Assembly: GCA_026391795.1 (NCBI GenBank)
Contig: JAPLDI010000033.1
Span: 1,598 to 65,597, forward strand
Reading direction: 5' to 3'
DNA: 64,000 bases
Source: Bacteroidota bacterium
Lineage (GTDB): Bacteria; Bacteroidota; Bacteroidia; Bacteroidales; FEN-979
This document shows, piece by piece, positions 28,884 to 63,057 of this stretch. The notes under the pieces were generated by a model. The model did not search any database and was not told the DNA's origin. It saw nothing but the letters and a program-made list of their open reading frames with translations. The translations under genes and the position numbers were made by a program. The first letter of the stretch is position 1; every line of letters begins with the position of its first letter.

Positions 28884-29444
28884 TTGAAAATATTCATCAA
28901 ATATATGGTTACCATCCGGTGCAAGATGGTTGTGAAATCGGCACTGGAGAATATTGGCGTTCCCTATACCTTTGTAGATCTCGGTGAGGCAGTAATAAGT
29001 GACGATGTCACCACCCAACAGATTGACAGCCTTCGGGTAGCTTTGAGAAAGACCGGACTCGAGTTGATGGATGACAAAAAAAGCATCCTGGTTGAGAAAA
29101 TCAAGGCGGTTATCATTGAACTGGTTCATTATAATGATGACCAGCTCAAGATCAACATGTCTGATTACCTGAGCGAAAAGCTCAATCACAATTACACCTA
29201 CCTTGCAAATCTTTTTTCGGAGGTTAAAGGAACAACCATTGAACACTTTTACCTGACCCATAAAATTGAAAAAGTAAAAGAGCTCCTCGTCTATGATGAG
29301 CTCAGCCTTACTGAAATTGCTTACCGGCTTAATTACAGCAGCGTGGCCCATCTTTCAAACCAGTTCAAGAAAATGACCGGGCTGACTCCTTCCCATTTCA
29401 AACACCTGAAACACAAGAGACGCCACACGTTGGAAAACATGTGA
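28884..29444 (+). CDS. Small AraC-family regulator with an HMA-like (ferredoxin-fold) N-terminal domain
   Basis: C-terminal AraC HTH (LTEIAYRLNYSSVAHLSNQFKKMTGLTPSHF). The N-terminus LKIFIKYMVTIRCKMVVK aligns with the paralog at 35678, which also starts at TTG. Alternative starts: 28830 or ATG 28905. Confidence 0.75.
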   Translation: MKIFIKYMVTIRCKMVVKSALENIGVPYTFVDLGEAVISDDVTTQQIDSLRVALRKTGLELMDDKKSILVEKIKAVIIELVHYNDDQLKINMSDYLSEKLNHNYTYLANLFSEVKGTTIEHFYLTHKIEKVKELLVYDELSLTEIAYRLNYSSVAHLSNQFKKMTGLTPSHFKHLKHKRRHTLENM

Positions 29445-29504
29445 ATAATGTAACTAATTCACAAAGTTGTGTAACGGTTCTCCCTCCGAAGTGATAGAAC
29501 TTTG
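29437..29504 (+). promoter_or_regulatory. Composite GTAAC-type promoter (a), upstream of the cupin gene
   Basis: Distal box ACATGTGAATAATGTAAC 29437-29454. Proximal GTAAC 29471-29475 (16-nt spacer). TTTG 29501-29504 (25-nt spacer). Confidence 0.7.
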
Positions 29505-29619
29505 CTATCTGAATTGTAATCCCTCTATTCATAGCAGTCATGAGAAAAACGAGAAAAATCATTTTTCGCTGGGCAGTACGCACATTGATAGGGGTGTTAA
29601 TCTCCAATATGATACGGTC

Positions 29620-29958
29620 ATGGATTCAACCGAAATTGATAAAGCAAAGGCGCTGATAATTGTGGAGATCATCGAGTATGTTCCAAATTCGGTGGTCATT
29701 AAAACAGTTATGAAAAAAACAACGGGTAATGTCTGTGCCAAATCTTTTGATGCAGGTGAAGCCCTGACGGAAAAAATTATCCCTTTTGATACCTTCGTCC
29801 AGATCATCGATGGGAAGGCTGAGATTGTAATTGACGGAACCCCGAATTTCCTGGAAACAGGTCAGTCGATCATTATCCCTGCCCACACGGCAAATATTGT
29901 GAGAGCCAACCAGCGCTTCAAAATGATTTCAACCATCATTAAAAGCGGGTATGAATAA
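29620..29958 (+). CDS. Cupin-domain protein
   Basis: About 112 aa with ...FDTFVQIIDGKAEIVIDG..ETGQSIIIPAHTAN..RA, a cupin beta-barrel pattern. ATG chosen downstream of promoter (a). Confidence 0.6.
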   Translation: MDSTEIDKAKALIIVEIIEYVPNSVVIKTVMKKTTGNVCAKSFDAGEALTEKIIPFDTFVQIIDGKAEIVIDGTPNFLETGQSIIIPAHTANIVRANQRFKMISTIIKSGYE

Positions 29959-29980
29959 ACAGGAGTACCTGACTGGCAGA

Positions 29981-30068
29981 ATGTGGGAATGATGTAACTT
30001 AAATAAATTGTTTTGTAACTCAAACCGCCCTGTTGATTCTCACCTTTGTAGCGTGGAAATTCTTTCAC
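29981..30068 (+). promoter_or_regulatory. Composite GTAAC-type promoter (b), upstream of the coiled-coil lipoprotein
   Basis: ATGTGGGAATGATGTAAC 29981-29998. GTAAC 30015-30019. TTTG 30045-30048. Palindrome GTGGA-N6-TTCAC 30053-30068. Confidence 0.75.
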
Positions 30069-30086
30069 AACTTTAACTTGAGACCA

Positions 30087-30536
30087 ATGAGAAAAACAAT
30101 TTTTTCAATTGCTGCAGCAGCGGTTATCGCAGCAACGATTCTGACAGCCTGCCAATCTTCTGAGAAAAAGGTTGAGGAAGCACAGGCCAATGTTCAGGAA
30201 GCAAATGCCAATGTGGCAAAGGCGAACCAGCAACTTGATCAGGCAATTAAAGATTCCATTCAGCAATTCAGAAAAGAATCGGAAGCAAGAATCATCGAAA
30301 ATGAAAAAAGCATTGCTGAATTCAGAGCCAAAATAGCCAGGGAAAATAAGGAAACAAGGGCAAGAAACGAACAGAGACTGGCTGAATTGGAGCAGCACAA
30401 CAGGGATTTGAGAAAGCAGCTGGAAGAATTCAGGGAAGACAGTAAAGACAACTGGGTTGCCTTCAGGGTTAAATTCAAAAACGACATGGACAACCTGGGA
30501 CACGCGTTTAAAAACTTCTGGGTGAAAGGTAAATAA
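30087..30536 (+). CDS. Coiled-coil lipoprotein (LEA/apolipoprotein-like, K/E/Q-rich)
   Basis: MRKTIFSIAAAAVIAATILTAC lipobox, then a low-complexity helical E/K/Q/A-rich sequence. Confidence 0.6.
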   Translation: MRKTIFSIAAAAVIAATILTACQSSEKKVEEAQANVQEANANVAKANQQLDQAIKDSIQQFRKESEARIIENEKSIAEFRAKIARENKETRARNEQRLAELEQHNRDLRKQLEEFREDSKDNWVAFRVKFKNDMDNLGHAFKNFWVKGK

Positions 30537-30629
30537 TAAATAGTATCATCTCCGGAAGGATTTATTCAGAATTATCTCCCCGGAATAATAAAATTCATCA
30601 GTCAAACCTAATCTTAAAAACAATAAATC

Positions 30630-30785
30630 ATGGGCTACCTACTTTATATTTTAGCAGTTATCCTGATCATCGGATGGGCAATCGGATTTATCGGATACGG
30701 TGCCGGAGGCATCATCCATGTACTCCTGGTTATTGCAATCATCGCAATATTATTCAGGGTGATTCAGGGGAGACGGGCCGTTTAA
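30630..30785 (+). CDS. lmo0937-like small membrane protein (51 aa)
   Basis: MGYLLYILAVILIIGWAIGFIGYGAGGIIHVLLVIAIIAILFRVIQGRRAV: two TM helices and a basic tail. Not in the ORF track (below its length cutoff). Read directly from the sequence. Confidence 0.6.
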   Translation: MGYLLYILAVILIIGWAIGFIGYGAGGIIHVLLVIAIIAILFRVIQGRRAV

Positions 30786-30846
30786 GGCCTGTAAAGCCGG
30801 GAGCGTTATTGACTCTCTCCCGACGAAAGGTTCACCGCAAAGTAGT

Positions 30847-30894
30847 CAGGACACGAATTACGTACAGATTAACATGGGAAGCATTCGTGTCCTG
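30847..30894 (+). terminator. 12-bp stem-loop in the 250-nt non-coding gap after the small membrane protein gene
   Basis: CAGGACACGAAT (30847-30858) / ATTCGTGTCCTG (30883-30894), 24-nt loop, followed by GCTTCTT. Confidence 0.35.
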
Positions 30895-31034
30895 GCTTCT
30901 TAGCGCGCTTATCCATCAAGATACCACCTGGCTTTTATTTGTTCGAACTTAATTTCAGGGATCAGCAGAGGGATTCGTAAAGATACAGGCATATATCGTG
31001 ACGGACCATTGTCAGGAAATGAAGATTAGAAGTC

Positions 31035-32144
31035 ATGATAAGTAAAGAAATACAAATTCCGTTTTACGCCAGGGTGACAATTCTGATCTTTGGAATCTCT
31101 GCTTTCATCATGATATTGTATATCGCGCGGGAGATTATTGTTCCCCTTGTCTTTGCGACTCTCCTGGCCATCGTTCTCCACCCGGTCGTTAATTTTTTTA
31201 CCCGGAGAAAAATAAGCAGGGTATTTGCAATCATCATCACTTTATTACTGACCATCCTGGTCATTGTTGCCCTGGGTGCATTCCTGGTGTCACAGGCGAT
31301 CCGGTTCAGTGAAACATGGCCGGTTTTGGTCGACAGGTTTACCGGGATCCTCAATGAGACCATTACCTGGATTTCCGGTTATTTTGATATAAAACCCCAA
31401 AAGATCCATGAATGGATCCTGAATACCAAAAGCGAGCTGATCAGCACCAGCTCTGCTGCGATCGGGCGAACACTTCTTACACTCGGGAACGGACTGGTAA
31501 TCCTGTTTTTAATTCCGGTATACATCTTCATGATCTTGTTTTATCATCCCCTTCTGATTGAGTTCATCCGGAGGCTTTTCAGAGAAGAACATCAAGGTAA
31601 AGTGGGTGAAATGATTTCCAAGACGAAAAGCGTGATCCAGCGTTACCTCGTCGGACTGGCCATAGAAGCTGTTCTTGTGGCAATCATGAATTCGGCCGGA
31701 CTTTTGATACTTGGGATCGACTACGCCATCTTACTGGGTATTCTAGGGGCCTTCCTTAATGTCATTCCCTACATAGGGGGAATTGTGGCTGTGGCGTTGC
31801 CCATGATGATCGCCATTGCAACAAAAGAGTCGGCCTGGTATGCTGTTTATGTCCTGGCTGTCTATTATTTCATTCAGCTCATCGACAATAACTTTATTGT
31901 TCCCAAAATTGTTGCTTCAAAAGTAAAGATCAACGCGCTGTTCTCCATCATCGTTGTCCTTGCCGGAAATGCCTTATGGGGCATCCCCGGCATGTTTCTT
32001 TCCTTGCCCCTTCTGGCCATTGTAAAGCTTATCTGCGACAATATCGAACCGCTAAAACCCTGGGGATTTTTATTGGGCGACACCATGCCATCCCTGTTGA
32101 GTATTGAACCGATCCTTAAGAAAGTAAAAAAGAAAGTGACATGA
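31035..32144 (+). CDS. AI-2E family transporter (PerM/UPF0118)
   Basis: About 8 TM helices. GILGAFLNVIPYIGGIVAVALPMMIAI and FIVPKIV motifs are typical of the family. Confidence 0.7.
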   Translation: MISKEIQIPFYARVTILIFGISAFIMILYIAREIIVPLVFATLLAIVLHPVVNFFTRRKISRVFAIIITLLLTILVIVALGAFLVSQAIRFSETWPVLVDRFTGILNETITWISGYFDIKPQKIHEWILNTKSELISTSSAAIGRTLLTLGNGLVILFLIPVYIFMILFYHPLLIEFIRRLFREEHQGKVGEMISKTKSVIQRYLVGLAIEAVLVAIMNSAGLLILGIDYAILLGILGAFLNVIPYIGGIVAVALPMMIAIATKESAWYAVYVLAVYYFIQLIDNNFIVPKIVASKVKINALFSIIVVLAGNALWGIPGMFLSLPLLAIVKLICDNIEPLKPWGFLLGDTMPSLLSIEPILKKVKKKVT

Positions 32145-33184
32145 TAGAGGTAAAAAAAGAAGGAATTATTCTCAGTAAGACTGACCTGGAATTTGAAAAT
32201 GAAGGGGTGCTTAATCCTGCCATTTTGCGAGAGGGCGACAACGTTCATGTTTTTTACCGTGCGGTGCGGAACGGGAATCATTCAACCATCGGCTATTGCA
32301 GGCTGGATGGTCCGCTTACTGTGGCGGAACGATGGGACCAGCCTTTCATCGTCCCTGAATTTGAATATGAATCACAGGGGGTGGAAGATGCGAGGATTGT
32401 TAAGATCGATGATCTCTTTTACATGACCTACACGGGGTACGACGGAACCAATGCACGCGGGGCCCTGGCGGTTTCAAATGATCTGAAGAGTTTTAAAAAG
32501 CTGGGAGTCATTGTCCCTCCCATCACGTATGCGCAATTTGTTTTCATGGCTGAATCTGCAGCCAAGGTAAATGAAAACTATTACCATAACCATAAGTTTT
32601 ATTACCAGGAATCCGATCCCGAAAAAAAGATCATGCTGTGGGATAAAAATGTAATCTTCTTTCCCCGCAGGATCAACGGAAACCTGGTGTTTCTGCACAG
32701 GATAAGGCCGGGAATACAGATCGTTTCTGTAAACTCGATCAAAGACCTGACCCCGGATTTCTGGGAAAAGTACTTTCTCAACTTGCAGGACCATATCGTC
32801 ATGGATCCCTTGCATGCGCATGAAGCAAACTACATCGGAAGCGGATGCCCTCCGATCGAGACAGAACATGGCTGGGTGTTGATCTATCATGGTGTGAGGG
32901 ATTCAAAAAAAGGGCTTATTTATTCAGCATGCGCTGCCCTTCTGGACCTTGAGGACCCCTCAAAGGAACTGGCACGGCTTCCTTACGCATTGTTTTCGCC
33001 GGAATATGATTGGGAAATAAGGGGAGAGGTGAACAATGTTGTTTTTCCGACCGGAACTGCCCTGTTCGGAAACACGCTCTTCATTTATTACGGAGCGGCG
33101 GATAGTCACATCGCCTGTGCCTCCGTCTCTTTTCAGACGTTAGTGGCAGAATTGCTTACCTATACAAAAAGTGATGCAAAATAG
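32141..33184 (+). CDS. GH130-like glycosidase/phosphorylase (PH1107-related)
   Basis: GVLNPA..REGD..HVFYRAV, GVEDARIVKIDDLFYMTYTGYDG, IYYGAAD: five-bladed propeller GH130-like pattern. 4-nt overlap with the upstream gene. Confidence 0.55.
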   Translation: MIEVKKEGIILSKTDLEFENEGVLNPAILREGDNVHVFYRAVRNGNHSTIGYCRLDGPLTVAERWDQPFIVPEFEYESQGVEDARIVKIDDLFYMTYTGYDGTNARGALAVSNDLKSFKKLGVIVPPITYAQFVFMAESAAKVNENYYHNHKFYYQESDPEKKIMLWDKNVIFFPRRINGNLVFLHRIRPGIQIVSVNSIKDLTPDFWEKYFLNLQDHIVMDPLHAHEANYIGSGCPPIETEHGWVLIYHGVRDSKKGLIYSACAALLDLEDPSKELARLPYALFSPEYDWEIRGEVNNVVFPTGTALFGNTLFIYYGAADSHIACASVSFQTLVAELLTYTKSDAK

Positions 33185-35516: not shown

Positions 35517-35559
35517 ATCTAAAATGCCGGAAAACAGGGGTTGGCACCGAAGCCGGGAA

Positions 35560-35627
35560 ATGTGTGAATTATGTAAGTTATTCGGGAAATTATGTAACGT
35601 TCAAAATCCCAAAGCCTCTCAATTTTG
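35560..35627 (+). promoter_or_regulatory. Composite GTAAC-type promoter (c), upstream of the AraC-HK-RR-PAS operon
   Basis: ATGTGTGAATTATGTAAG 35560-35577. GTAAC 35594-35598. TTTG 35624-35627. Same 16/25-nt spacers. Confidence 0.7.
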
Positions 35628-35677
35628 CAACATGAATTGACTGCCATTCAAAGGTGGCCTGATAAAGAAGTGACTGT

Positions 35678-36277
35678 TTGAAGCTATACATCAAATACAT
35701 GGTAAGTAACCGCTGTAAAATGGCGGTAAAAGAAGAGCTTAAAAAGCTTGGATTGCATTTCATCATTGTCGATCTGGGTGAGGTTGAGATCATGGAAAAT
35801 ATTTCCGCAGGGCAGCGGGAAAGCTTGTCAGTTGCACTGCACAGTTCAGGACTTGAACTGATGGACGACAAGCGGGCGATCCTGATTGAAAGAATAAAAA
35901 ATGCGGTTATTGAGATGGTTCATCATACGGACGACCTGATCAAGGTGAATTTTTCCGATTTTTTAAGTGAGAAACTAAAATATGATTATACATACCTGGC
36001 TAACTTATTCTCAGAAGTGCAGGGAACGACCATCGAGCATTTCATCATATCCCATAAAATTGAACGGATTAAGGAATTGATCATTTACGATGAATTGAAC
36101 ATAACCGAAATAGCCTGGAAATTAAATTACAGCAGTGTGGCACATTTATCCAATCAGTTTAAAAAGGTAACAGGGCTTTCACCGTCGCATTTTAAACAGT
36201 TGAAAAACAAGAGGAGAAGCCCGATTGAAGAAGTCGGGAATTCTGATCATGGAGATCACGCAATCTCATCAAATTAA
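35678..36277 (+). CDS. Small AraC-family regulator with an HMA-like N-terminal domain (paralog of 28884-29444)
   Basis: TTG start. MKLYIKYMVSNRCKMAVKEELKKLG... then AraC HTH ITEIAWKLNYSSVAHLSNQFKKVTGLSPSHF. Preceded by composite promoter (c). Confidence 0.8.
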   Translation: MKLYIKYMVSNRCKMAVKEELKKLGLHFIIVDLGEVEIMENISAGQRESLSVALHSSGLELMDDKRAILIERIKNAVIEMVHHTDDLIKVNFSDFLSEKLKYDYTYLANLFSEVQGTTIEHFIISHKIERIKELIIYDELNITEIAWKLNYSSVAHLSNQFKKVTGLSPSHFKQLKNKRRSPIEEVGNSDHGDHAISSN

Positions 36278-36288: not shown

Positions 36289-38616
36289 ATGGCGATTAAG
36301 ATTAACACCGATGAGTTAGACCTTGCACGCCTCGAACTTGCCCGGCGGATGGTTGAGAATGAAAGCCTGGCTGCTGAATTGGCCGTTGTACGAAAAGAAC
36401 TTGCCTTTCAGAAAGAAGAAAAAGGAAAACGGGCCAAAGAGTTAGGTATTGCAAACATTGAACTTGCCTACCAGGATGAAGAGAAAGGAAAACGTGCAGC
36501 AGAGCTGGGCATCGCTAACATTGAACTTGCTTTCCAGGATGAAGAGAAAGGAAAGCGCGCGGCAGAATTGATCATTGCCAACAAGGAACTCGCATTTCAG
36601 AACGATGAAAAAGAGAAACGGGCAGCCGAATTAAGGATTGCCAATTATGCACGGAGTATTATTGAAGCAAGCCGTGATCCTTTATTTACCATCAGCCCTG
36701 CCGGGAAAATTACCGATATGAACGATGCCTCCGTAAACATAACGGGAATTTCACGCAAAAACCTTACGGGAACCGACTTCTTTGATTATTTCACCGACCC
36801 GCAGAAAGCACGTGAGGTTTACAAAGAAGTATTTGCAAAAGGATTTGTGGCCGATTATCCTCTGACGATTAAAGACCATAAACTGACCGATGTACTGTTA
36901 AATGGCTCGGTCTATAAAGATGACAGGGGAGATGTACTGGGTGTGGTTGTGGTGGCAAGGGATATTACCGACCAGAAAAGGATTGAAACGGAATTGACGG
37001 AGGCCATCGTATTTGCCGAGCTGGCAACTTCCATTGCCGAAGATGCAAAAATCAAAGCGGAAGATGCCACCCGGATCGCAGAAAATGCAGTGAAAGCCAA
37101 ACAGCAGTTCCTGTCAAACATGAGTCACGAGATCCGCACGCCGATGAATGCACTCATCGGGTTTACAAAAGTGCTGCTGAAAACCGATGTGACATCAAAG
37201 CAAAAGGAGTACCTCACCGCCATAAAAATGAGCGGGGATGCCCTGATCGTCCTGATCAACGACATCCTCGACCTGGCAAAAGTGGATGCAGGGAAAATGG
37301 TTTTTGAACAGATACCCTTCACCATGGCGCTATCCATATCGGCGATGCTTCATTTATTCGAAACAAAAATCCAGGAAAAGAATTTAAAGCTGGTTATTGA
37401 TTACGACAGCAAGATTCCTAAAGTATTGATTGGTGATCCGGTACGTTTGCACCAGATCATCCTGAATCTTGTGAGCAATGCCGTTAAATTCACCACAAAG
37501 GGAATAATTACGGTCAGAGTCACTTTGATAAATGAAGACGAAGAGAAAGCAACTGTGGAATTTGCAGTGTCTGACACCGGAATCGGTATCCCGGAGAGTA
37601 AAATGGGAACTATTTTTGAAAACTTTCAGCAGGCTACCAGCGGAACTTCACGGTTGTACGGGGGAACCGGTTTGGGACTGGCCATCGTAAAACAACTGGT
37701 CGAGCCGCAAGGAGGAACCATTCACGTGGAAAGTAAAGTTGACGAGGGCTCCACGTTCAGCTTTGTACTGAGTTTCCTTAAAACAAATGAGGAAGCTGAA
37801 CCCGAGGCTGAGATTGTTGAACTGGACAAGAAAATTAAGAACATAAAAGTACTGGTTGTCGAAGACATCCCGCTCAACCAGCTGCTCATGAAAACGTTGC
37901 TGGATGATTTCGGATTTGAACGTGATATTGCTGCAAACGGGAAGATTGCCATCGAAAAGTTAAAATCCAGGTCGTTCGATATCATTTTAATGGACCTGCA
38001 GATGCCTGAAATGAACGGTTTTGAAGCAACCGAATACATCCGCAACACAATGAATTCAAAAATACCCATCATTGCACTGACCGCTGATGTAACCACCGTT
38101 GACCTGGCAAAATGCAAAGCCGTAGGGATGAATGATTACATCGCAAAACCAGTTGATGAGCGGTTGTTATACAGTAAGATCGTTGGCCTGGTTAAGAAGC
38201 CCCTTCCTGAAAAATTCATGGAGCAGCAGAGTGAAGGAACCGTTGATGTAAAGAAGTCAAGGTGCACTGATTTGGATTACCTGGTCCACCGCACAAGATC
38301 CAACCCCGGATTGATGATGGAGATGATTTCGCTCTACCTGGAACAGACCCCGGCACTGATCACCACCATGAAGAAAAGTTTTCAGGAAAAGGATTGGCAT
38401 ACATTGCATACAGCAGTCCATAAGATGATTCCGTCGTTTTCAATAATGGGTATTAATGCCGATTACGAGAATATGGCAAAGAAGGTTCAGGAGTTTGCAA
38501 CTACCCAGCAACAGGCCGATGGAATTTCCGACCTGGTTTTACAGCTTGAGATCATTTGCGGGCAGGCATGCAGTGAACTGGAAGTGGAGTTTAACAGGAT
38601 TAAAAGGGAGAACTGA
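36289..38616 (+). CDS. Hybrid sensor histidine kinase (coiled-coil repeats, PAS, HisKA, HATPase, REC, HPt)
   Basis: H-box SHEIRTPMNALIGF, N-box LVSNAVKFT, DTGIGI, GGTGLGLAIV. REC: VLVVEDIPLNQ...ILMDLQMPEMNG. HPt-like: HKMIPSFSIMG. Confidence 0.9.
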   Translation: MAIKINTDELDLARLELARRMVENESLAAELAVVRKELAFQKEEKGKRAKELGIANIELAYQDEEKGKRAAELGIANIELAFQDEEKGKRAAELIIANKELAFQNDEKEKRAAELRIANYARSIIEASRDPLFTISPAGKITDMNDASVNITGISRKNLTGTDFFDYFTDPQKAREVYKEVFAKGFVADYPLTIKDHKLTDVLLNGSVYKDDRGDVLGVVVVARDITDQKRIETELTEAIVFAELATSIAEDAKIKAEDATRIAENAVKAKQQFLSNMSHEIRTPMNALIGFTKVLLKTDVTSKQKEYLTAIKMSGDALIVLINDILDLAKVDAGKMVFEQIPFTMALSISAMLHLFETKIQEKNLKLVIDYDSKIPKVLIGDPVRLHQIILNLVSNAVKFTTKGIITVRVTLINEDEEKATVEFAVSDTGIGIPESKMGTIFENFQQATSGTSRLYGGTGLGLAIVKQLVEPQGGTIHVESKVDEGSTFSFVLSFLKTNEEAEPEAEIVELDKKIKNIKVLVVEDIPLNQLLMKTLLDDFGFERDIAANGKIAIEKLKSRSFDIILMDLQMPEMNGFEATEYIRNTMNSKIPIIALTADVTTVDLAKCKAVGMNDYIAKPVDERLLYSKIVGLVKKPLPEKFMEQQSEGTVDVKKSRCTDLDYLVHRTRSNPGLMMEMISLYLEQTPALITTMKKSFQEKDWHTLHTAVHKMIPSFSIMGINADYENMAKKVQEFATTQQQADGISDLVLQLEIICGQACSELEVEFNRIKREN
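36397..36648 (+). repeat. Coding tandem repeat, 4 x 63 nt (21 aa: ELAFQ.EEKGKRAAEL.IAN.) in the hybrid HK N-terminus
   Basis: ELAFQKEEKGKRAKELGIANI / ELAYQDEEKGKRAAELGIANI / ELAFQDEEKGKRAAELIIANK / ELAFQNDEKEKRAAELRIANY. Confidence 0.85.
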
Positions 38617-39047
38617 TGAACAACGAAAAAATCAGGCTTTTCCTGGTGGATGATGATGCCTTGTTTTTAAAGTCATTGGAGATTGAGTTTCTTCAGCATG
38701 CTGATTTTACGATTGAAACATTTGCCACCGGAGAGCTTTGTATAGAAAATCTGTCTCACACGCCGGATGTCATCATTCTGGATTACCTTCTTGACGATGT
38801 TGATAAAAATGCCATGAACGGAATAGAAACACTGGATAAAATCAAGGCCTTCAATCCGGATATCCCGGTAGTGATGTTATCCGCACAGGATAAAATTGAC
38901 GTGGCAATCAGCTGCATGCATCACCGTGCTTTCGATTATGTTGTAAAGAGTGAAACCGCATTTTTCAGGTTGCAAAAAATCATCTCAACCATCTTTCTTT
39001 ACCAGAAGATGGAGAAGGAATTAACCTGGTATATGGAGAAGATGTGA
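38616..39047 (+). CDS. Single-domain response regulator (CheY-like receiver)
   Basis: FLVDDDALFLKSLE...VIILDYLLDD...VVMLSAQD. The start overlaps the HK stop (TGATG). No output domain. Confidence 0.85.
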   Translation: MNNEKIRLFLVDDDALFLKSLEIEFLQHADFTIETFATGELCIENLSHTPDVIILDYLLDDVDKNAMNGIETLDKIKAFNPDIPVVMLSAQDKIDVAISCMHHRAFDYVVKSETAFFRLQKIISTIFLYQKMEKELTWYMEKM

Positions 39048-39633: not shown

Positions 39634-39722
39634 ATCACTTCCCGGCCTGCTTCTTTTCCCGCATTTTTCTGATCCGATGCTTTCTTTCCTTCAGCCCATA
39701 TCCAGGTGAACCGTTACTGGAA

Positions 39723-39813
39723 ATGTGGGAATTATATAACTTTTTTTCGAAATTCCGTAACACGGTTCGGGACAGGTTTTCCGATCTTTGGGTTGCTGTG
39801 AAAATTCATTCAT
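39723..39813 (+). promoter_or_regulatory. Composite GTAAC-type promoter (d), upstream of the haem-binding protein
   Basis: ATGTGGGAATTATATAAC 39723-39740. GTAAC 39757-39761. TTTG 39787-39790. GTGAA-N6-TTCAT 39798-39813. Confidence 0.7.
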
Positions 39814-40228: not shown

Positions 40229-40353
40229 AAGAGCCTCTGAAACAGTGAATATCCTCCTGGTTTTGGTTCATACGATAGAGGATGCGGGGGATATTCAGTT
40301 TGTTGGGGTACTGCCCTGTTTTCATTTCAGGGAAGGTTCCCCTTCTTTCTGTT

Positions 40354-40421
40354 TTGTGTGAATAATGTAAGAATTTACTGAAAATGTGTAACGCTTTCCG
40401 GATTGGGAGGAGTGAACTTTG
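40354..40421 (+). promoter_or_regulatory. Composite GTAAC-type promoter (e), upstream of the FNR-like reductase (possibly a long operon through mgtA)
   Basis: TTGTGTGAATAATGTAAG 40354-40371. GTAAC 40388-40392. TTTG 40418-40421. Confidence 0.7.
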
Positions 40422-40463
40422 TGAACGGGAAAATCATCCCGGATTATACTAAGGAATCGTGCA

Positions 40464-46071: not shown

Positions 46072-46075
46072 CTAA

Positions 46076-46143
46076 ATGTGTGAATGATGTAACTGTTTGC
46101 AATCTTTGTGTAACAATCTTCTTTCCCTCCCGCAATAACTTTA
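46076..46143 (+). promoter_or_regulatory. Composite GTAAC-type promoter (f), upstream of the small membrane protein
   Basis: ATGTGTGAATGATGTAAC 46076-46093. GTAAC 46110-46114. TTTA (variant of TTTG) 46140-46143. Confidence 0.65.
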
Positions 46144-46193: not shown

Positions 46194-46355
46194 ATGGCAA
46201 GGTTATTATTGATTATCGGGTTGATTCTCGTAGTTCTTTGGCTGTTGGGGTTATTTGCATTTCATGTGACCACACCGGTTTTTCACGCACTGATCATCAT
46301 CGGTGTCATCCTGATCATTCTCGATCTTGCAAACAGCCGCCGCAACTGGTGGTGA
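46194..46355 (+). CDS. lmo0937-like small membrane protein (53 aa)
   Basis: MARLLLIIGLILVVLWLLGLFAFHVTTPVFHALIIIGVILIILDLANSRRNWW: two TM helices and a basic tail. Start 54 nt downstream of promoter (f). Confidence 0.6.
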   Translation: MARLLLIIGLILVVLWLLGLFAFHVTTPVFHALIIIGVILIILDLANSRRNWW

Positions 46356-46747: not shown

Positions 46748-46821
46748 TATTCCCTGACTGCGCTCGTCTGTTTTTTATTTCAGATGACCTTTCCTTTCCT
46801 GATCAGAATCCCTTCTTTTTG

Positions 46822-46912
46822 ATGTGTGAATGATGTAACTTATTCCTAAGTTTATGTAACGCAAAAGCGGTTGAACCCATCGACCTTTGTATTCTTGTGA
46901 AAAGTAATTCAC
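46822..46912 (+). promoter_or_regulatory. Composite GTAAC-type promoter (g), upstream of the ice-binding-like T9SS protein
   Basis: ATGTGTGAATGATGTAAC 46822-46839. GTAAC 46856-46860. TTTG 46886-46889. GTGAA-N6-TTCAC 46897-46912. Confidence 0.75.
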
Positions 46913-48612: not shown

Positions 48613-48632
48613 GGACGACAACACCTTATTGA

Positions 48633-48720
48633 ATGTGGGAATGATGTAACATAATGAAGAAGTTATGTAACACTTTCCGGCGCAAACGGTGGCACCTTTG
48701 TGGTGTGGAAATACATTCAC
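48633..48720 (+). promoter_or_regulatory. Composite GTAAC-type promoter (h), upstream of the CsbD gene
   Basis: ATGTGGGAATGATGTAAC 48633-48650. GTAAC 48667-48671. TTTG 48697-48700. GTGGA-N6-TTCAC 48705-48720. Confidence 0.75.
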
Positions 48721-53459: not shown

Positions 53460-53500
53460 AAGGAGATGCGATATCCCTGATGCATTTCCGTACTTATTGG

Positions 53501-53568
53501 AAGTGGCAATGATGTAACTCTTTTCATTAATTGTGTAACAGGTTGCGGGAGTTCCCAACCCACCTTTG
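53501..53568 (+). promoter_or_regulatory. Composite GTAAC-type promoter (i), upstream of the DUF3943-like gene
   Basis: AAGTGGCAATGATGTAAC 53501-53518. GTAAC 53535-53539. TTTG 53565-53568. Only a half palindrome (GTGAA 53573-53577). Confidence 0.65.
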
Positions 53569-55254: not shown

Positions 55255-55256
55255 TC

Positions 55257-55632: not shown

Positions 55633-55712
55633 GCTGGTAAGCTGGTAAGCTGGTGAGCTGATGAGCTGATGAGCTGATGAGCTGATGAGCTGAGGTGATG
55701 GTGAGATGGTGA
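55633..55712. repeat. 8-nt tract: (GCTGGTAA)x2, GCTGGTGA, (GCTGATGA)x4, GCTGAGGT, (GATGGTGA)x2
   Basis: Strict 8-nt phase over 80 nt. Confidence 0.85.
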
Positions 55713-55818
55713 GTCAGAGTAGGGATGGTTATAGATAAGGTACGGGAAGGATCAAAGGAGAATGGATGTGACTTGTCCTGAATTCCGAATTCGGAGTGAG
55801 GTATCATCTAACTACTGT

Positions 55819-55839
55819 TCTCTGATCTCTGACCTCTGT
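55819..55839. repeat. 7-nt tract TCTCTGA TCTCTGA CCTCTGT
   Basis: Read directly from the sequence. 11 nt from the PAP2 stop at 55850. Confidence 0.65.
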
Positions 55840-55849
55840 TAACAGCCTC

Positions 55850-56779: not shown

Positions 56780-56797
56780 ATGGAATGGATTTTATTG

Positions 56798-56992
56798 TCA
56801 GGATTCGTCTTTTGTCGTGCGTATCAGTCCAATACCGGCTATAAAAAAGATGATTCCGAGAATGCTGAAAATAAGCAGCGCTTTAATATCGCGTGTGCCT
56901 CCTGAAAGGTTGATGAAAACCACAGCCGCATAGATAAGACCGGCGATCCCAAGAACCGTAAGCAACGCCCCGAAAATTCGTTTAACATTCAT
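56798..56992 (-). CDS. Small 2-TM membrane protein
   Basis: 64 aa with two hydrophobic helices, tightly packed in the minus-strand operon. Confidence 0.5.
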   Translation of the reverse strand: MNVKRIFGALLTVLGIAGLIYAAVVFINLSGGTRDIKALLIFSILGIIFFIAGIGLIRTTKDES

Positions 56993-57095
56993 GATGGAGA
57001 TTTTTAGGATTTGTTTTCATGTTGAAGAAAATAATGACTTTTCTTCCCTTGCTGGAAGGAAAGAAAATCACTTAAATGTTCTCCGTAATGCCTTT

Positions 57096-57281
57096 TCAGA
57101 CATGGAAATTCGTAAGATACGCGATGACGCCGAATACCTTTAGCAACCAGATAATCACAATAACAACCACCACAACATTCAGGATGGTTTTGATTTTGTG
57201 ATCCATGGGGATGTAGGTGTTTACAAGCCAAAGAATGAGGCCTGCAACAACCAGAACGATCAAAATGGTGAGTAGTGGCAT
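57096..57281 (-). CDS. Small membrane protein (Thivi_2564-like)
   Basis: MPLLTILIVLVVAGLILWLVNTYIPMDHKIKTILNVVVVVIVIIWLLKVFG: matches my recollection of this small-protein family. Confidence 0.55.
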   Translation of the reverse strand: MPLLTILIVLVVAGLILWLVNTYIPMDHKIKTILNVVVVVIVIIWLLKVFGVIAYLTNFHV

Positions 57282-57291
57282 GATAGAAGAA

Positions 57292-58758: not shown

Positions 58759-58773
58759 AAAAATAGTTTTTAT

Positions 58774-58861
58774 GTGATTGAATAATCACCTTACAAAGGT
58801 GCATCCCAACAGAGATTTACGTGTTACATAACAATTGAAATAAGTTACATCATTCACACAT
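58774..58861 (-). promoter_or_regulatory. Composite GTAAC-type promoter (j), upstream of the W/Y/G-rich protein / small membrane proteins / PAP2 operon
   Basis: Minus strand. Distal box = complement of 58844-58861. Proximal GTAAC = complement of 58823-58827. TTTG = complement of 58794-58797. GTGAT-N6-ATCAC 58774-58789. Confidence 0.75.
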
Positions 58862-58898
58862 TTGAAAAATCAGGCTGGATACGGAAAACCGTTGACAC

Positions 58899-61292
58899 CT
58901 ATTTCATTCCCTGAAGTGCAACTTTGTTTTGCTTTCGTTCCTTCTTATACTTTTGTCTCGGACCTTCGTCATTTAATTCATTCATTTTCCGGTATGCCTT
59001 GACCAGGGACTCCGGAAGGTCGCCTTTGTAGGTTATTTTGTAAAATGAGAATCCGTTGTAGGGAACGTCGTTTTTACTGGAATACATATGTACACGATTT
59101 TGCACCCCTTTCAGCTTAAATTGCAGCATAAAAGTGTTTTCCCTTTCCGTATCCAGCAGTTTGAATTTTGCATCAACAACAGCCGGGCCTACCAGCCTGC
59201 TGCATTTATCCTGTAAGGTAAACAGAAGAGTATCGGTCACCATTTTGTTTAAATAGTGCACAAACAGGAGATCCTTGACCGACATTTTGGTAATCCGGAT
59301 GGAATCACTTTCGGTTACTGCAGATAAATTCATCTTTTCAGTGGAAGCGAAATATTTTTTCCTTGCTTCAAAAAACAGGATCTGTTCCTTTTCTTTGTCT
59401 GCATAAATCGCCGGATGTACGGCAATCGAAGCTCCCTGATCCTTTTCGAGGAAATCAACCAGCGTGAGAACAAATTTCTCCTGTTCGGGGGTAAGGGAAC
59501 GCTGCCGCATCTTCCAGGTCAGGGAGAACGATTGCTCGATCTCGGTTTCCATGTCTCTGACCTCCATCCGGTATGGTCCTGTTGCAGGCTTTACGAAGAT
59601 ATTGGTCAGCAAATCCATCAGCACATCATGAAGATGGAATTTCGGATTCTTTAAATCACCGGTAATCGGGATTTCATAATCAATAACATTGCCGCGCTCA
59701 CGCACCAGTGACATAATCAGCGGCAGGGGTATCCATTTTGAATCTTTATTTCTCAACCGTTTGGATACCCGCGGGTCAATGACCAGCAGGTGATTCACGC
59801 TTTGTATGTTTTCATCCCTCACATTCCAGATCCCGTTTACTTCCAACGTTCCCCTGTCTAAAGGGAAAGAAGTATAGGTCGTCAGGTAGGGGTTAAATAG
59901 TGAAACAGGAATTTTCAGGATATGATATTGCATGTCGAAATCCCCTTTGTTTTTTGGGTTTATGCTAAGTGTCACTACCACATTGCCGTAAGGCTTTATC
60001 CCTGATTTGAACACTGCAGTTACACGTTTCTGGTTCCGGTTGATCGAATCAGCCAGGAAATAGACAGGATCAGCCGAAACGGTGAATTTCTCACTTACGG
60101 AGAAGTCGCTGAACCTGAGATGGCCCCGGTAGATTGCCAGACGGTTAATCCGGTAGTCGCTCACAAAAAAGTTCTTAACCAGTCCTTTTATATACCTGGC
60201 AATGGTAACGATGAGGTTAAACCGTTCGGATTCTGCCCCGGCTTCGGAAAGATTGGTCCCGTTTTTCCCGAACATCATCTGCAGGTTATCGAGGGAATCA
60301 TAACGCTCATACTTGAAGTAGGGATGAACCAGTGATAAGGAATCGAAGCTGTATTTGTGATTCTTCGGGTTCAGCTGAATTATTTGAAGGACCAGCTGGT
60401 CGAAAGCAGCGTAATCATCGTCCGGTTTTTTCCCGATGTGAAATTCATTAAACGCAACAAGCCCTTTTGCATTCAGATTCTCCAGGTCTTTAAAACTCCC
60501 TGTTGCTTTGATATCTGCATCCAGGTTGGCACGAAAAGTTCCGTAATTGACCAGGTCATCCAGGTATTGTTCCAGGAACTTCAGATCGAATTTATGAATG
60601 ACAGCGGTGAGACGATAATTCACGTTCTTAAAGTTGATTGAGAAGTTCCCTTTTGCCGTACCTGTTCCGGGTCCCGAAACAAAGGAGTATTTCAGGGCAA
60701 GGGTGTCTGAATTCCAGCGCTTTCCCGTACTTTCAATATTCACTTCCCTGAGGTAGTAATTTATCGGTGTCACCAGGTCGTGGTAATGGAACTCCCCGTT
60801 TTTAAGGGTTATCTTCAGAATGCTGAAATGAACACCGGAAGGGGGTGAATATGTTTTTTTGGGAGCAAATGCGACGATCCAGTCAGAAAAATTTACTCTG
60901 TCTTTATCCTGGATAATGATCCCTTTCGGGTTGGTTACAGTGATCTCCGATATTTCAATGGTTTTCGAAAGCAGTTTAAGTAGCGACAGGTTGGCGCTCA
61001 CACCGTCTGCCGAAAAGAAAATGCTGTCGCCTTTGGGATAGCTAGGCAGTTTTCTGGATTCATAAACCACCAGGTTGCTAATATGAACATAGCCGGTAAA
61101 AGGGTTTACATACACCAACCCCATTTTTATCTGGCGTCCCGTATATTTCTCTCCGTATTTTTTTCCCAGGTATTTCCCGATCGGAGAGGCAAACAGAATG
61201 ACAACAGCAACCAACAGAAGGATGGAACCTATTGTTATCAGTATGGCTTTTTTAAATTTGGTGTCTGCGATTTTCATCTCTGATAAGATCAA
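58899..61292 (-). CDS. DUF748/AsmA-like large envelope protein
   Basis: N-terminal TM anchor, then a long beta-rich periplasmic domain. N-terminus (GRQIKMGLVYVNPFTGYVHISNL) resembles DUF748. Confidence 0.5.
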   Translation of the reverse strand: MILSEMKIADTKFKKAILITIGSILLLVAVVILFASPIGKYLGKKYGEKYTGRQIKMGLVYVNPFTGYVHISNLVVYESRKLPSYPKGDSIFFSADGVSANLSLLKLLSKTIEISEITVTNPKGIIIQDKDRVNFSDWIVAFAPKKTYSPPSGVHFSILKITLKNGEFHYHDLVTPINYYLREVNIESTGKRWNSDTLALKYSFVSGPGTGTAKGNFSINFKNVNYRLTAVIHKFDLKFLEQYLDDLVNYGTFRANLDADIKATGSFKDLENLNAKGLVAFNEFHIGKKPDDDYAAFDQLVLQIIQLNPKNHKYSFDSLSLVHPYFKYERYDSLDNLQMMFGKNGTNLSEAGAESERFNLIVTIARYIKGLVKNFFVSDYRINRLAIYRGHLRFSDFSVSEKFTVSADPVYFLADSINRNQKRVTAVFKSGIKPYGNVVVTLSINPKNKGDFDMQYHILKIPVSLFNPYLTTYTSFPLDRGTLEVNGIWNVRDENIQSVNHLLVIDPRVSKRLRNKDSKWIPLPLIMSLVRERGNVIDYEIPITGDLKNPKFHLHDVLMDLLTNIFVKPATGPYRMEVRDMETEIEQSFSLTWKMRQRSLTPEQEKFVLTLVDFLEKDQGASIAVHPAIYADKEKEQILFFEARKKYFASTEKMNLSAVTESDSIRITKMSVKDLLFVHYLNKMVTDTLLFTLQDKCSRLVGPAVVDAKFKLLDTERENTFMLQFKLKGVQNRVHMYSSKNDVPYNGFSFYKITYKGDLPESLVKAYRKMNELNDEGPRQKYKKERKQNKVALQGMK

Positions 61293-61361
61293 AAGGAAAG
61301 ATCCTGTATCCGGGAGAAATCGCCGGGTGCAGGAAGGAGCTTCCCTGTGTTTAGTAGTTCT

Positions 61362-62291
61362 TTAATTTTTCCGGCCGGGATGGTTCAGGTTTGAAAGGTT
61401 CCAGCAGAGGCTGACACCGACTGCATCGGAGGATGTTGCCAGGTTCAATGCCAGGTATTTGCTGCAGGGAACTTTATGGATGGCAGGGATCACAATCCCG
61501 AGGATTGCCCCGAGTCCAAAACCGACAGCCACGTCGGAAGGAAAATGATCCAGTGACCGGATGCGCGCATATGCGATCGCCAGGGGAGGAACCGAAGCGG
61601 CCAGGTAGAGGAGATATTTTCCGGCTCCCAGTTCTGGATGGTAATCGCAAAATACCTTGACCATGAAAAAAGTACTGTAGGAGCAGGAAGCCACGTGTCC
61701 GCTGTAAAACGAGTTGCGGTTGTTTGGATTTTCCTGGGCTTCTTTGCCCAGAGCAGGATAATATACAGCGGGCCGGTAACGGTTTTGAAAATAGGGACCC
61801 ATCGGGCTGTAGTTGTAGAATGTAAACGTAACCGTATGCCCTTCAACATACATGAAAAGCAGGCGGAGCCAATCCTTCCGGATTTTTTTATCAATCATAA
61901 GCAAACTGGGTAAGAGAAAGATCCCGATCTCGCCATAGTCGGAAACTTTCTTCCATGTAGCACGATCCGATGTCGGTTGTTTCAACGCCCACCGGTCGAC
62001 AGAGTTCAGCAGGTTTTTCTGCTGGTCCGTATTGGCAAATACCAGCTCCTCATCGGATAGGGGAGGTTTGCTTTTTAAGCGGGGAATGGCAATTAAATCT
62101 CCTGCCATCCCTACGGCTATGATAGCCCCTTCCACCCAGTAGTTGATGCGGTATACTTTTACTTTTAATGGTTTTACTGGAATTACCGGTTTTATTACGG
62201 TGTCTTTCAGGGTTACAAGAGAATCCGGGTTGCCGCAGAATGCATTAACCCAGATAAACATGCCAGCCAACAGGCAAATTGTTTTTTTCAT
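61362..62291 (-). CDS. PAP2-family phosphatase
   Basis: FYSGHVASCSYS (SGH) and RIRSLDHFPSDV (SRxxxxxHxxxD-like). Polytopic membrane protein. Confidence 0.75.
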   Translation of the reverse strand: MKKTICLLAGMFIWVNAFCGNPDSLVTLKDTVIKPVIPVKPLKVKVYRINYWVEGAIIAVGMAGDLIAIPRLKSKPPLSDEELVFANTDQQKNLLNSVDRWALKQPTSDRATWKKVSDYGEIGIFLLPSLLMIDKKIRKDWLRLLFMYVEGHTVTFTFYNYSPMGPYFQNRYRPAVYYPALGKEAQENPNNRNSFYSGHVASCSYSTFFMVKVFCDYHPELGAGKYLLYLAASVPPLAIAYARIRSLDHFPSDVAVGFGLGAILGIVIPAIHKVPCSKYLALNLATSSDAVGVSLCWNLSNLNHPGRKN

Positions 62292-62306
62292 GATTTAAAA
62301 TATTAA

Positions 62307-62840
62307 CTATTTCTTCCCTTTTCCTCCTCCGTTTCCATGATCCTCTTTTCCATTCTTGTCATGGCCCTGGGAGTTTCCTTTATCATTACCATGTCCGCTA
62401 TTATGATCACCCTGGTTTCCCTGGTGAGGTTGATTATTACCTGGATTCCCTTTGCCCGGCCGTTCGCCAACGGTTTTCTGCGCTCCGCCATGGTACCCTT
62501 TGCCATATTTCCTTTTATATTCCTTGAAATTGGAATAGGGGGCATTTCCGTGATAGCCGTTCATCACTACCTTATAGCCTCCGTAGAGATCGTAGTTCCT
62601 GTATTGCGACGGAAGATATGCCCGGTGAATCCATGCTCCGCCGCTCGAATAGATGAACATGGCCGTATGAACATCATAATAGGCTTCCACATCCGGCAGG
62701 TAATAATATTGTACTTCTGCATACCCGGCTGGTCCCCAAAGCGGGGGTGAACCAATCGATACATTTACCGAAACCTGCCCCTGCATCGTACCCGCAAAAA
62801 GCAGCACGAATCCGGTAATGAATAATCTTAAAGCCTTCAT
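62307..62840 (-). CDS. Secreted protein with a Gly/His/Asn/Lys-rich tail
   Basis: Start set at MKALRLFITGFVLLFAGTMQGQ. The ORF-track start at 62879 overlaps the -7 box of promoter (k). Tail: HGGAQ...GNQGDHNSGHGNDKGNSQGHDKNGKEDHGNGGGKGKK. Confidence 0.6.
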   Translation of the reverse strand: MKALRLFITGFVLLFAGTMQGQVSVNVSIGSPPLWGPAGYAEVQYYYLPDVEAYYDVHTAMFIYSSGGAWIHRAYLPSQYRNYDLYGGYKVVMNGYHGNAPYSNFKEYKRKYGKGYHGGAQKTVGERPGKGNPGNNQPHQGNQGDHNSGHGNDKGNSQGHDKNGKEDHGNGGGKGKK

Positions 62841-62856
62841 CTCATCTGGTTTACCT

Positions 62857-62943
62857 GTGAATGATTTTCCACGGAACAAAGGTGCGATGGCTGGTGCCCA
62901 AAAGCCTTACACAATTGAAGAAAAGAGTTACATCATTCACACT
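62857..62943 (-). promoter_or_regulatory. Composite GTAAC-type promoter (k), upstream of the G/H-rich protein / PAP2 / DUF748-like operon
   Basis: Minus strand. Distal box = complement of 62927-62943. Proximal GTAAG = complement of 62906-62910. TTTG = complement of 62877-62880. GTGGA-N6-TTCAC = complement of 62857-62872. Confidence 0.75.
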
Positions 62944-62989
62944 TTCAGGATCCCGCAATACCCTTTTCTTCATCTTTCTGGCTGTGTAA

Positions 62990-63057
62990 TTGTGGGAATC
63001 ATGTAAAAGAATCAAAAAGTTGTGTAACATGAACCCCCTTCGATATCCTCAACTTTG
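62990..63057 (+). promoter_or_regulatory. Composite GTAAC-type promoter (l), upstream of the OmpA-like lipoprotein (divergent from k)
   Basis: TTGTGGGAATCATGTAAA 62990-63007. GTAAC 63024-63028. TTTG 63054-63057. Confidence 0.7.

Follow-up and report, generated by a model that had tools for sequence, protein, structure and literature searches.

The window analysed here is a 64,000-nucleotide stretch of DNA from a Bacteroidota bacterium of the order Bacteroidales (contig JAPLDI010000033.1 of assembly GCA_026391795.1). It carries twelve copies, lettered a to l, of a composite promoter-like element made up of a distal box, a proximal box, and a -7 box at fixed spacing. A first-pass annotation, made from the sequence alone, proposed that these sites drive a general-stress-like regulon and named small AraC-type proteins as the likely regulators. 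One such protein is encoded in the window next to a hybrid histidine kinase and a receiver-only response regulator.

Twelve composite sites in the window

The 12-site observation is real and far above chance. The short pattern GTAAC-N16-GTAAC-N25-TTTG, allowed one mismatch at most, has 12 matches in the window versus 0.02 in dinucleotide shuffles. A long pattern of 22 fixed bases, TGnGAATnATGTAAC-N16-GTAAC-N25-TTTG, fits 12 of 12 sites with zero or one mismatch (block shuffles give 0-0.05 matches each), and raising the tolerance to two to five mismatches adds no site across the window. A profile hidden Markov model (HMM) that was trained on the sites of other genomes only and then run on the window recovers exactly the same twelve (E = 5e-16 to 2e-10), and its next match has E = 6.9. 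Given this gap and the lack of intermediate mismatches, the set is complete, sharply bounded, and limited to 29.4-63.1 kb. All twelve sites of the first-pass annotation were thus re-found by pattern search and HMM, and its statement that the first 28 kb has none holds for the long pattern and for the HMM. One coordinate is corrected, as the distal 18-mer of site k starts at 62944 and not at 62943.

Promoters j and k lie on the minus strand and the others on the plus strand. The downstream gene labels of the annotation are confirmed by Pfam or NCBIfam. Promoter a (29436-29504; distal AACATGTGAATAATGTAAC, proximal ...TGTGTAAC, -7 box GAACTTTG) precedes a cupin gene (Pfam). Promoter b (29980-30048) precedes the gene of an sll1863-family coiled-coil lipoprotein, followed by a DUF5670 (lmo0937-like) peptide, an AI-2E transporter, GH130, and GT1. 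Promoter c (35559-35627) is the predicted autoregulatory site of the operon for the AraC-type protein AraC2, the hybrid kinase, and the receiver. Promoter d (39722-39790) is followed by a Haem_bd protein gene. Promoter e (40353-40421) is followed by an FNR-like reductase, and genes for a short-chain dehydrogenase/reductase, CbpA/CbpM, and a P-type ATPase come next on the same strand. Promoter f (46075-46143), in which TTTA replaces TTTG, belongs to a DUF5670 peptide whose real start is near 46194. Promoter g (46821-46889) serves an ice-binding-like protein with a type IX secretion system (T9SS) sorting tail, promoter h (48632-48700) CsbD and then MlaE/F/D, and promoter i (53500-53568) a DUF3943 protein. 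Promoter j (58794-58862) heads a DUF6600 protein operon. Promoter k (62877-62945) is followed by genes for a G/H-rich protein, PAP2, and a DUF748/AsmA-like protein, and promoter l (62989-63057) by that of an OmpA-like coiled-coil lipoprotein.

Every site in the window is intergenic and points toward its downstream gene, as first described; the sole overlap is between the distal box of site a and the last codons of an AraC paralog. The annotation placed ten of the twelve start codons about 35-55 nt past TTTG. The clustering stands and the count is revised to 11 of 12 at about 31-55 nt, because a TTG at 35678, about 50 nt beyond TTTG, is the start of the regulator gene after site c. Only site i, with a long leader of about 114 nt, falls outside this range. 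The rare distal variants are also as reported (sites c and e have GTAAG, site d has ATAAC, and site l has GTAAA), and a variant proximal pentamer, GTAAG, is found in site k only.

Promoters k and l are divergent and stand back-to-back (62877-63057), with their distal boxes 43 bp apart. Among the loci of other organisms, which carry labels such as L001, divergent pairs 38-50 bp apart (site start coordinates) are found in L001, L076, and L113, and close divergent pairs also in L133 and L149.

Promoter anatomy and the leader hairpin

Base frequencies were taken from 350 sites, which are those of the window and of 200 loci of other organisms. Positions are numbered with the G of TTTG at -5, following the flavobacterial sigma-A box TAnnTTTG (-12 to -5) as it is given in PMC9723704. 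The extended distal box is 19 nt long (-73 to -55, AATGTGkGAATnATGTAAC). It is followed by a T/A-patterned linker with partial conservation (-54 to -47), a core proximal box of 13 nt (-46 to -34, A.A.TT.TGTAAC), a stretch with no consensus (-33 to -13), and the -7 box (-12 to -5, (C/T)AnCTTTG). The annotation had described the spacers as unconserved. They are indeed not kept as copies of a mobile repeat would be, but scattered conserved positions extend beyond those first seen: AA(-73/-72) (92% for A(-72)), T(-67) (93%), T(-54), T(-51), T(-50), A(-44), TT(-42/-41) (90%), T(-39) (98%), and A(-11) (95%). All of these lie outside the search pattern and hence are not imposed by the search. Within the -7 box, A(-11) is accompanied by TTTG at 85-100%, C(-9) at 70%, and T(-12) at only 30%.

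The two boxes are direct repeats. Their 21-bp period is exact at all sites, and against the distal matrix, the octamer that precedes the proximal GTAAC scores -6.6 bits in register versus -18.4 bits when shifted. When the distal box alone is used as a probe, 83 matches are obtained, and nearly all (~73) have, at exactly +16, GTAAC or a variant that differs from it at one or two bases; 41 of the 83 continue with CTTTG at +45 and 6 with CTTTG at +44. Two loci, L131 and L143, have two full boxes each. Together, the exact period, the in-register likeness, and these promoters bear out the proposal of direct repeats 21 bp apart. Four further loci (L150, L151, L160, L167) have a single full box, in the proximal position, and then a perfect TATCTTTG. 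The fixed relation is therefore box-N21-(T)AnnTTTG. Each box contains two sub-sites about 10 bp apart, which by analogy would be the footprint of one AraC-family double helix-turn-helix domain.

The Bacteroidota sigma-A consensus, as cited in PMC9723704, has TTTG at -33 and TAnnTTTG at -7. Among the 350 sites, a -33 TTTG element 19-21 nt before the -7 box is absent, and GTAAC occupies that position, 21 nt upstream of nAnnTTTG. This agrees with the earlier placement of the proximal GTAAC at the -33 element, relative to the predicted start. The composite shares with the sigma-A promoter A(-11), TTTG (-8 to -5), and an upstream element 21 nt before the -7 box, and differs in having GTAAC for the -33 TTTG, T(-12) at a low frequency, and a conserved C(-9). 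A generic sigma-70 promoter and terminator scan of the window gave no signal above its shuffles.

A 16-nt element, GTG(A/G)(A/T)AAT-N3-(A/T)TCAC, follows 60 of the 350 sites (17% versus 0.3% in shuffles) and in 50 of these 60 cases starts at exactly the fifth nucleotide past TTTG. It forms a hairpin with a 5-bp stem and a 6-nt loop, and its flanks are unpaired. The fifth stem pair is formed in 93% of cases versus 62% expected, with A:T replaced by T:A, U.G, or G:C, and G.U pairs are also found at the fourth stem position. The U.G pairs and compensatory changes indicate that the element acts as sense-strand RNA and not as a DNA site. A reading of the palindrome at +1 as a CRP/FNR-type operator was rejected on these two grounds and on its wrong spacing (GTGA-N8-TCAC). 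The hairpin is probably the very 5' end of the transcript, which would fit a start 5 nt past TTTG. Structures at the 5' terminus typically shield mRNA against 5'-end-dependent decay.

Seven of the twelve window sites (b, d, e, g, h, j, k) have the hairpin, beginning 5-8 nt past TTTG. It starts at the predicted +1 in hairpins b (30053-30068, GTGGAAATTCTTTCAC), e (40426-40441, CGGGAAAATCATCCCG; -7.9 kcal/mol, z = -2.9), and h (48705-48720, GTGGAAATACATTCAC) on the plus strand, and in j (58774-58789, GTGATTATTCAATCAC; z = -3.9) and k (62857-62872, GTGGAAAATCATTCAC) on the minus strand. Hairpins d (39798-39813, GTGAAAATTCATTCAT; -9.7 kcal/mol, z = -3.2) and g (46897-46912, GTGAAAAGTAATTCAC; z = -4.3) are also on the plus strand, and that of d lies inside a longer stem. 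The stem of hairpin e is fully compensated (CGGGA...TCCCG), with both arms changed and the loop retained. In hairpin j, the fifth pair is T:A for A:T.

At promoters b, g, h, and k, the +1 hairpin has a 5' arm and loop (GTGAAAAT) similar to the upstream half of the distal box (GTGTGAAT). In the leaders of L028, L045, L050, L081, L089, L102, and L109, mostly of CsbD genes, the +1 hairpin is succeeded by another conserved one, CCGCCAGAAGCGG. It is absent from the CsbD leader of the window. Rfam covariance models had no match at the gathering score across the window and none at E up to 1 in 29000-64000, which sets the composite apart from known RNA motifs.

Distribution, downstream genes, and the candidate regulator

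A scan of one genome per species (596 Gb) lists the exact composite in at least 120 loci versus about 0.07-0.3 expected by chance. Among the matches listed, 119 of 120 are labelled as Bacteroidota or relatives. The groups comprise Bacteroidales, Flavobacteriales, Chitinophagales, Saprospiraceae, Sphingobacteriales, Cytophagales, Ignavibacteria, Kapaibacterium, and one metagenome-assembled genome (MAG) of the 'FCB group'. The one exception among the matches listed, L118, is labelled Candidatus Saccharibacteria; it has the motif together with Bacteroidota-type genes (ice-binding-like, kinase, receiver) and is probably mis-binned. The annotation had proposed a scan of related genomes for intergenic and orientation bias, and both are strong. 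Only 7% of the 350 sites are inside long open frames, versus 78% of random positions in the same loci, and a start codon lies 12-200 nt downstream at 319 of the 350, most often at a distance of 30-50 nt. Measured from the predicted transcript start, the leaders have a length of about 25-45 nt.

The most frequent first gene elsewhere encodes an ice-binding-like T9SS cargo protein (34 sites). It is followed by CsbD (20), MlaE with MlaF and MlaD behind it (19), OmpA-like lipoproteins (18), a small G/H-rich lipoprotein of an unnamed cluster (16), a small transmembrane peptide of another unnamed cluster (12), DUF6600 (9), homologs of the G/H-rich protein of the window (8), YtxH (7), sll1863-family proteins (6), DUF5670 (lmo0937-like) peptides and cupins (5 each), and Usp (3). 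PAP2/DUF748 and CbpA/CbpM also recur near sites elsewhere as first or later genes. An AraC gene is first at 46 sites, a count that is inflated because 80 of the loci were picked by AraC homology. Many unlinked protective genes, CsbD, YtxH, and Usp among them, thus share one promoter type. The content looks like that of a general stress or envelope-protection regulon. The label 'general-stress-like' in the annotation fits with CsbD, YtxH, Usp, ice-binding-like proteins, MlaEFD, OmpA-like proteins, DUF6600, and DUF5670. Judged by sequence comparison, the architecture is probably the signature of a general stress or dormancy regulon that has not been described before.

The candidate activator AraC2 (35678-36277, plus strand) is a protein of 199 aa with a TTG start and a Pfam HTH_18 match. 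It is composed of an 86-aa N-terminal domain of no known family (KLYIKYMVSNRCKM...GLELMDDK) and an AraC-type double helix-turn-helix. Its homologs number more than 8000, and the best 120 of them are 81-90% identical; the closest AraC match among the fetched loci is at 87% in MAG GWF2_33_16. A blastn comparison of the window with the fetched loci found nothing near-identical. Across classes, the AraC proteins are 62-76% identical and the receivers 75-82%, values that are uncommonly high among regulators and that mirror the invariance of the motif. The AlphaFold2 model of AraC2 predicts the standard seven-helix AraC DNA-binding domain, and by foldseek this domain matches MarA, SoxS, Rob, AdpA, and AraT/YesN. 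A search with the full-length model matched only AraC DNA-binding domains. Both structure models, of the whole protein and of the N-terminal domain, were made without the first 7 residues.

The paralog AraC1 (28884-29444, plus strand; HTH_18/HTH_AraC) is 63% identical to AraC2. It has no kinase of its own, and its gene ends inside the distal box of promoter a. The recognition helices of the two proteins are near-identical and differ by a single conservative substitution per helix. Ahead of AraC1 (28760-28825) lies a degenerate site, which was not counted because its spacings are 19 and 22 instead of 16 and 25. Both genes start at a TTG 21 nt before the obvious ATG (35678-35698 and 28884-28904), and the peptides (M)KLYIKY and (M)KIFIKY are conserved. 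For AraC2, the 21 nt ahead of the internal ATG vary synonymously between loci and the peptide KLYIKY is kept; library proteins align to AraC2 from their residue 1. Many database AraC entries are, given this conserved peptide before the ATG, probably 7 residues too short.

Downstream of AraC2 on the same strand are the hybrid histidine kinase (36289-38616) and the receiver-only response regulator (38616-39047, 143 aa). The kinase is soluble, with no membrane segment in its sequence, and contains coiled-coil repeats, PAS, HisKA, HATPase, a receiver, and a C-terminus that resembles a histidine phosphotransfer (HPt) domain. It opens (36289-36650) with four tandem coiled-coil repeats of about 21 aa (ELAFQDEEKGKRAAELxIAN) before the PAS domain. 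The receiver protein has the full catalytic set, namely an acidic pocket, the phospho-acceptor Asp, Ser, and Lys. With a hybrid kinase and an intact receiver, the operon has every step of an H1-D1-H2-D2 relay, whose last member lacks an output domain.

The second set of loci, 80 metagenome loci picked by AraC homology alone (670 kb in total), contains 127 sites versus 0.003 expected. The gene order AraC, hybrid kinase, receiver is found in 68 of these 80, and a full box stands upstream of the AraC gene at a sharply fixed distance in 57 of 75 loci. AraC homologs are also present in 20 of the 120 motif-selected loci. No other DNA-binding protein is consistently encoded near the sites in either the motif-selected or the AraC-selected loci. 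Two fusion proteins join the parts of the system. In P0230, AraC is fused to a receiver that is orthologous to that of the window (55% identity, E = 3e-56); its contig (L201) encodes a kinase and then the AraC::receiver protein, with the receiver C-terminal. P0155 is an AraC::PAS-kinase fusion. The fusions support a single pathway with the AraC protein as its output. By genomic linkage, predicted autoregulation, and fusions, the small AraC proteins are the best candidates for the regulator, in line with the first proposal.

A block of similar content is known from Flavobacterium psychrophilum. Table S4 of its expression atlas lists the genes that never leave the lowest quartile of expression across its 64 samples (32 conditions), and the list is dominated by the block THC0290_1141-1210 of about 45-60 kb (PMC9723704). 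The block holds a 179-aa AraC regulator, a 144-aa response regulator, UspA, an ABC permease/ATPase pair, a PH1107-type glycosidase beside a 778-aa GT1, a peptidoglycan-binding protein, and outer-membrane proteins (PMC9723704). Its glycosidase-GT1 pair matches the GH130-GT1 pair of the window, a likeness in gene content. The F. psychrophilum start table has no transcription starts for the block. Were the block homologous, standard stresses would leave the regulon firmly shut, which would fit activator dependence and explain why motif discovery from start sites missed it. If it carries the motif, the regulon would explain its weak expression in every atlas condition.

The regulon island (28000-64000) has a G+C content of 0.43-0.47 versus 0.48-0.54 in the preceding 28 kb. 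That site-free part encodes T9SS cargo proteins, a DEAD-box helicase, and a citrate-type transporter. At 6486-8341 (minus strand), two neighbouring open reading frames together make up a class II fumarase/aspartase-type lyase, and the upstream piece has an N-terminal cyclic-nucleotide-binding domain. The split could be a frameshift, a pseudogene, or an unusual fusion.

A proposed mechanism, its rivals, and its meaning

The comparative data support the main interpretation of the first-pass annotation. The best model, to which a somewhat better than even probability is given, has two AraC sites in tandem at a period of 21 bp, of which the proximal one stands in for the -33 element in a promoter with a sigma-A-type -7 box. 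From the architecture, its conservation, the gene linkage, and the fusions we infer binding, activation, transcription start, receiver action, and stress as the trigger, as follows. The core promoter would be a weakened Bacteroidota sigma-A -7 box, (C/T)AnCTTTG, without the -33 TTTG. Two small AraC-type molecules (AraC2, and possibly AraC1 too) would bind head-to-tail on one face of the helix, and the proximal one would contact and recruit RNA polymerase in the class II manner. The signal would enter through a cytoplasmic phosphorelay that runs from the PAS hybrid kinase (H1-D1-HPt) to the receiver-only protein, and this protein would switch the AraC protein on through protein-protein contact. 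The AraC/kinase/receiver operon would activate itself. Transcripts would begin 5 nt past TTTG, and about one-sixth of the RNAs would carry the 5-bp, 6-nt-loop hairpin at their start, which would probably stabilise or mark the mRNAs.

Several observations weigh against this model. The conserved C(-9) is outside the published sigma-A consensus, and 18 of 75 AraC genes have no clear upstream box. The fusions are rare, and P0230 is found on a single contig. Pfam places the 86-aa N-terminal domain in no family (STAS at E = 0.1 is not significant), and a separate model of the domain, with a predicted local distance difference test score of 58, is too poor to use; on these two grounds, the control of the AraC protein by the receiver is a guess. 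The AraC gene may itself be only a member of the regulon and not encode its master. The look-alike block of F. psychrophilum is weakly expressed under osmotic, peroxide, starvation, and other conditions as well (PMC9723704), and the label 'general stress' may be wrong.

The fallback in the first-pass annotation, an alternative sigma factor, is still carried as the main rival. As an extracytoplasmic function (ECF)-type promoter, the site would have the distal ATGTAACT as its -35 element and the proximal TGTAAC, 16 nt downstream, as its -10 element. The start would then lie inside the N25 spacer, with AnCTTTG and the hairpin in the leader or in a second promoter. The GTAAC pentamer and the 16-nt gap are shared with known ECF promoters, and these likenesses count against the AraC model as well. 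The distance from the distal AAC to the proximal GT is 16 nt, which is ECF spacing, and TGTAAC is the -35 element of Bacillus subtilis sigma-X (TGTAAC-N17-CGAC). In F. psychrophilum, GTAAC-N16-CGTAT is an experimentally mapped ECF-type class, SM6 (PMC9723704), and Bacteroidota carry many ECF sigma factors (PMC7826278). A Saprospiraceae MAG (L072, ~5650-5911, minus strand) has a 3-mismatch site about 200 nt upstream of an ECF-like gene, the sole case among about 350 sites. However, the CGT of the ECF -10 element is absent, as 98% of sites have a T just ahead of the proximal GTAAC, and the 350 sites show no conserved element 16-17 nt past the proximal AAC. The distal box is 19 nt long, and the two boxes are alike over about 13 nt in register, which is unexpected for elements read by sigma regions 4 and 2. 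A(-11) and TTTG, the key sigma-A -7 positions, are kept at a fixed distance, the hairpin is locked to this additional sigma-A-like box, and the four single-box promoters have no GTAAC at +16 but have TATCTTTG 21 nt after the box. ECF-like genes were found in 3 of 201 loci by tblastn with RpoE and SigW, a search of limited sensitivity, and none in the window. AraC genes are the commonest first gene, and no sigma/anti-sigma genes are consistently linked. The ECF reading would also imply leaders of 60-80 nt. An ECF promoter is thus considered unlikely.

The repeats could instead be bound by a factor encoded elsewhere, such as a response regulator of the LytTR or OmpR type, with the AraC operon a mere member of the regulon. 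Direct repeats with a period of about 21-22 bp that abut -35 are also typical of LytTR and OmpR/PhoB-type activators, and the linkage and autoregulation of the AraC gene are circumstantial. The lack of any other DNA-binding protein consistently near the sites, the bipartite 19-nt box that suits an AraC double helix-turn-helix, a DNA-binding domain of the AraC protein that is conserved to an extreme degree in parallel with the motif, and the fusion of kinase and receiver to the AraC protein in some genomes make such a factor quite unlikely. The boxes as operators at which the AraC protein or another repressor shuts otherwise constitutive sigma-A promoters are very unlikely. Most AraC-family proteins act as activators. 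With no -33 TTTG and with T(-12) at only 30%, the core promoter looks too weak to need repression, and the single-base precision of the box-to-(-7) spacing across the phylum is typical of activators that touch the polymerase. On the side of repression are the proximal box, which covers the -35 region, and the weak expression of the look-alike F. psychrophilum block in all conditions (PMC9723704). Copies of a mobile or repetitive element, such as a miniature inverted-repeat transposable element, and a chance pattern have a negligible probability. Many copies do lie within 34 kb, but the spacers are unconserved, the orientation is fixed, the sites are intergenic, shuffles give 0.02 matches, Rfam has no match, and the same architecture precedes orthologues in distant classes. 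These readings are already refuted, and the annotation was right to set the mobile repeat aside.

The tandem AraC model has a close parallel in the araBAD promoter of Escherichia coli, where AraC binds the direct repeats araI1-araI2 with a 21-bp period, the proximal site reaches -35, and AraC is autoregulated. The likeness covers the repeats, the period, the proximal site near -35, the double helix-turn-helix, and the autoregulation, which is predicted here. The window regulator differs in its unrelated 86-aa N-terminal domain in place of a sugar-binding cupin, in an apparent phosphorelay input instead of a ligand, in the Bacteroidota -7 core, and in dozens of putative target promoters versus one operon. 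As with MarA, SoxS, and Rob, one small AraC-family protein would serve many stress promoters. The marbox, too, overlaps -35 and is asymmetric and bipartite, with a length of about 19-20 bp and a distance of about 10 bp between its two recognition elements, and the predicted domain fold matches. Marboxes, however, are single and unrelated in sequence and belong to a different phylum, whereas two boxes stand in tandem here, and those regulators respond to their abundance or a ligand rather than to the kinase relay proposed here. By sequence, the closest solved relatives of the DNA-binding domain are of the YesN/AraT type (6swi, 3lsg), in which a histidine kinase is also coupled to an AraC output. 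Here, in contrast, the receiver and the AraC protein are separate polypeptides, the rare fusions place the receiver C-terminal, and the window AraC protein has an N-terminal domain of its own.

In gene content (CsbD, YtxH, Usp, lmo0937-like, sll1863-family, and envelope/lipid genes), the regulon is like those of sigma-B in Bacillus and Listeria, RpoS in Proteobacteria, and PhyR-NepR-EcfG in Alphaproteobacteria, and a histidine kinase with a receiver protein as input is shared with PhyR. The proposed master differs in being an AraC-type activator that would work with the housekeeping sigma factor, and not an alternative sigma factor. Among motifs described in the phylum, the 'PM2' motif of Bacteroides thetaiotaomicron (-10/-30 elements, near-palindromic) does not fit the composite and was set apart by its description, and the SM1-SM6 motifs of F. 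psychrophilum are different from it.

The first-pass annotation held that no such regulon had been defined in Bacteroidota, and the motif, the regulator, and the regulon were not found described in the literature outside subscription journals. The individual parts (an AraC activator, class II geometry, a phosphorelay) are of known kinds. Their combination in a phylum-wide regulon with a near-invariant small AraC protein, a new N-terminal domain, a receiver-only partner, and a +1 hairpin appears undescribed in the searched literature.

Bacteroidota are dominant in gut, soil, plant, and marine microbiomes. To our knowledge, no general stress system of the RpoS, sigma-B, or EcfG type is known in this phylum, and how its survival functions are coordinated is largely unknown. 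A broader joint reading, held tentatively and at somewhat less than an even chance, is that the system is the missing general stress or dormancy master switch of Bacteroidota, including Ignavibacteria and Kapaibacterium. In it, a near-invariant AraC activator would work with the housekeeping sigma factor and be gated by a PAS relay as a 'split response regulator' that acts by partner binding, with a layer of 5' mRNA hairpins, and the whole would be shut under ordinary laboratory conditions. If true, this last property would account for transcriptome maps missing the regulon. A 69-bp promoter code would predict the regulon in any genome of the phylum, and with a candidate regulator, kinase, and receiver named, a general stress response of Bacteroidota can be put to a direct test. 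DUF6600, DUF3943, DUF5670, DUF748, and ice-binding-like T9SS cargo would gain a common physiological context. The system could also be a tool for Bacteroidota genetics, as a tightly off, inducible promoter system.

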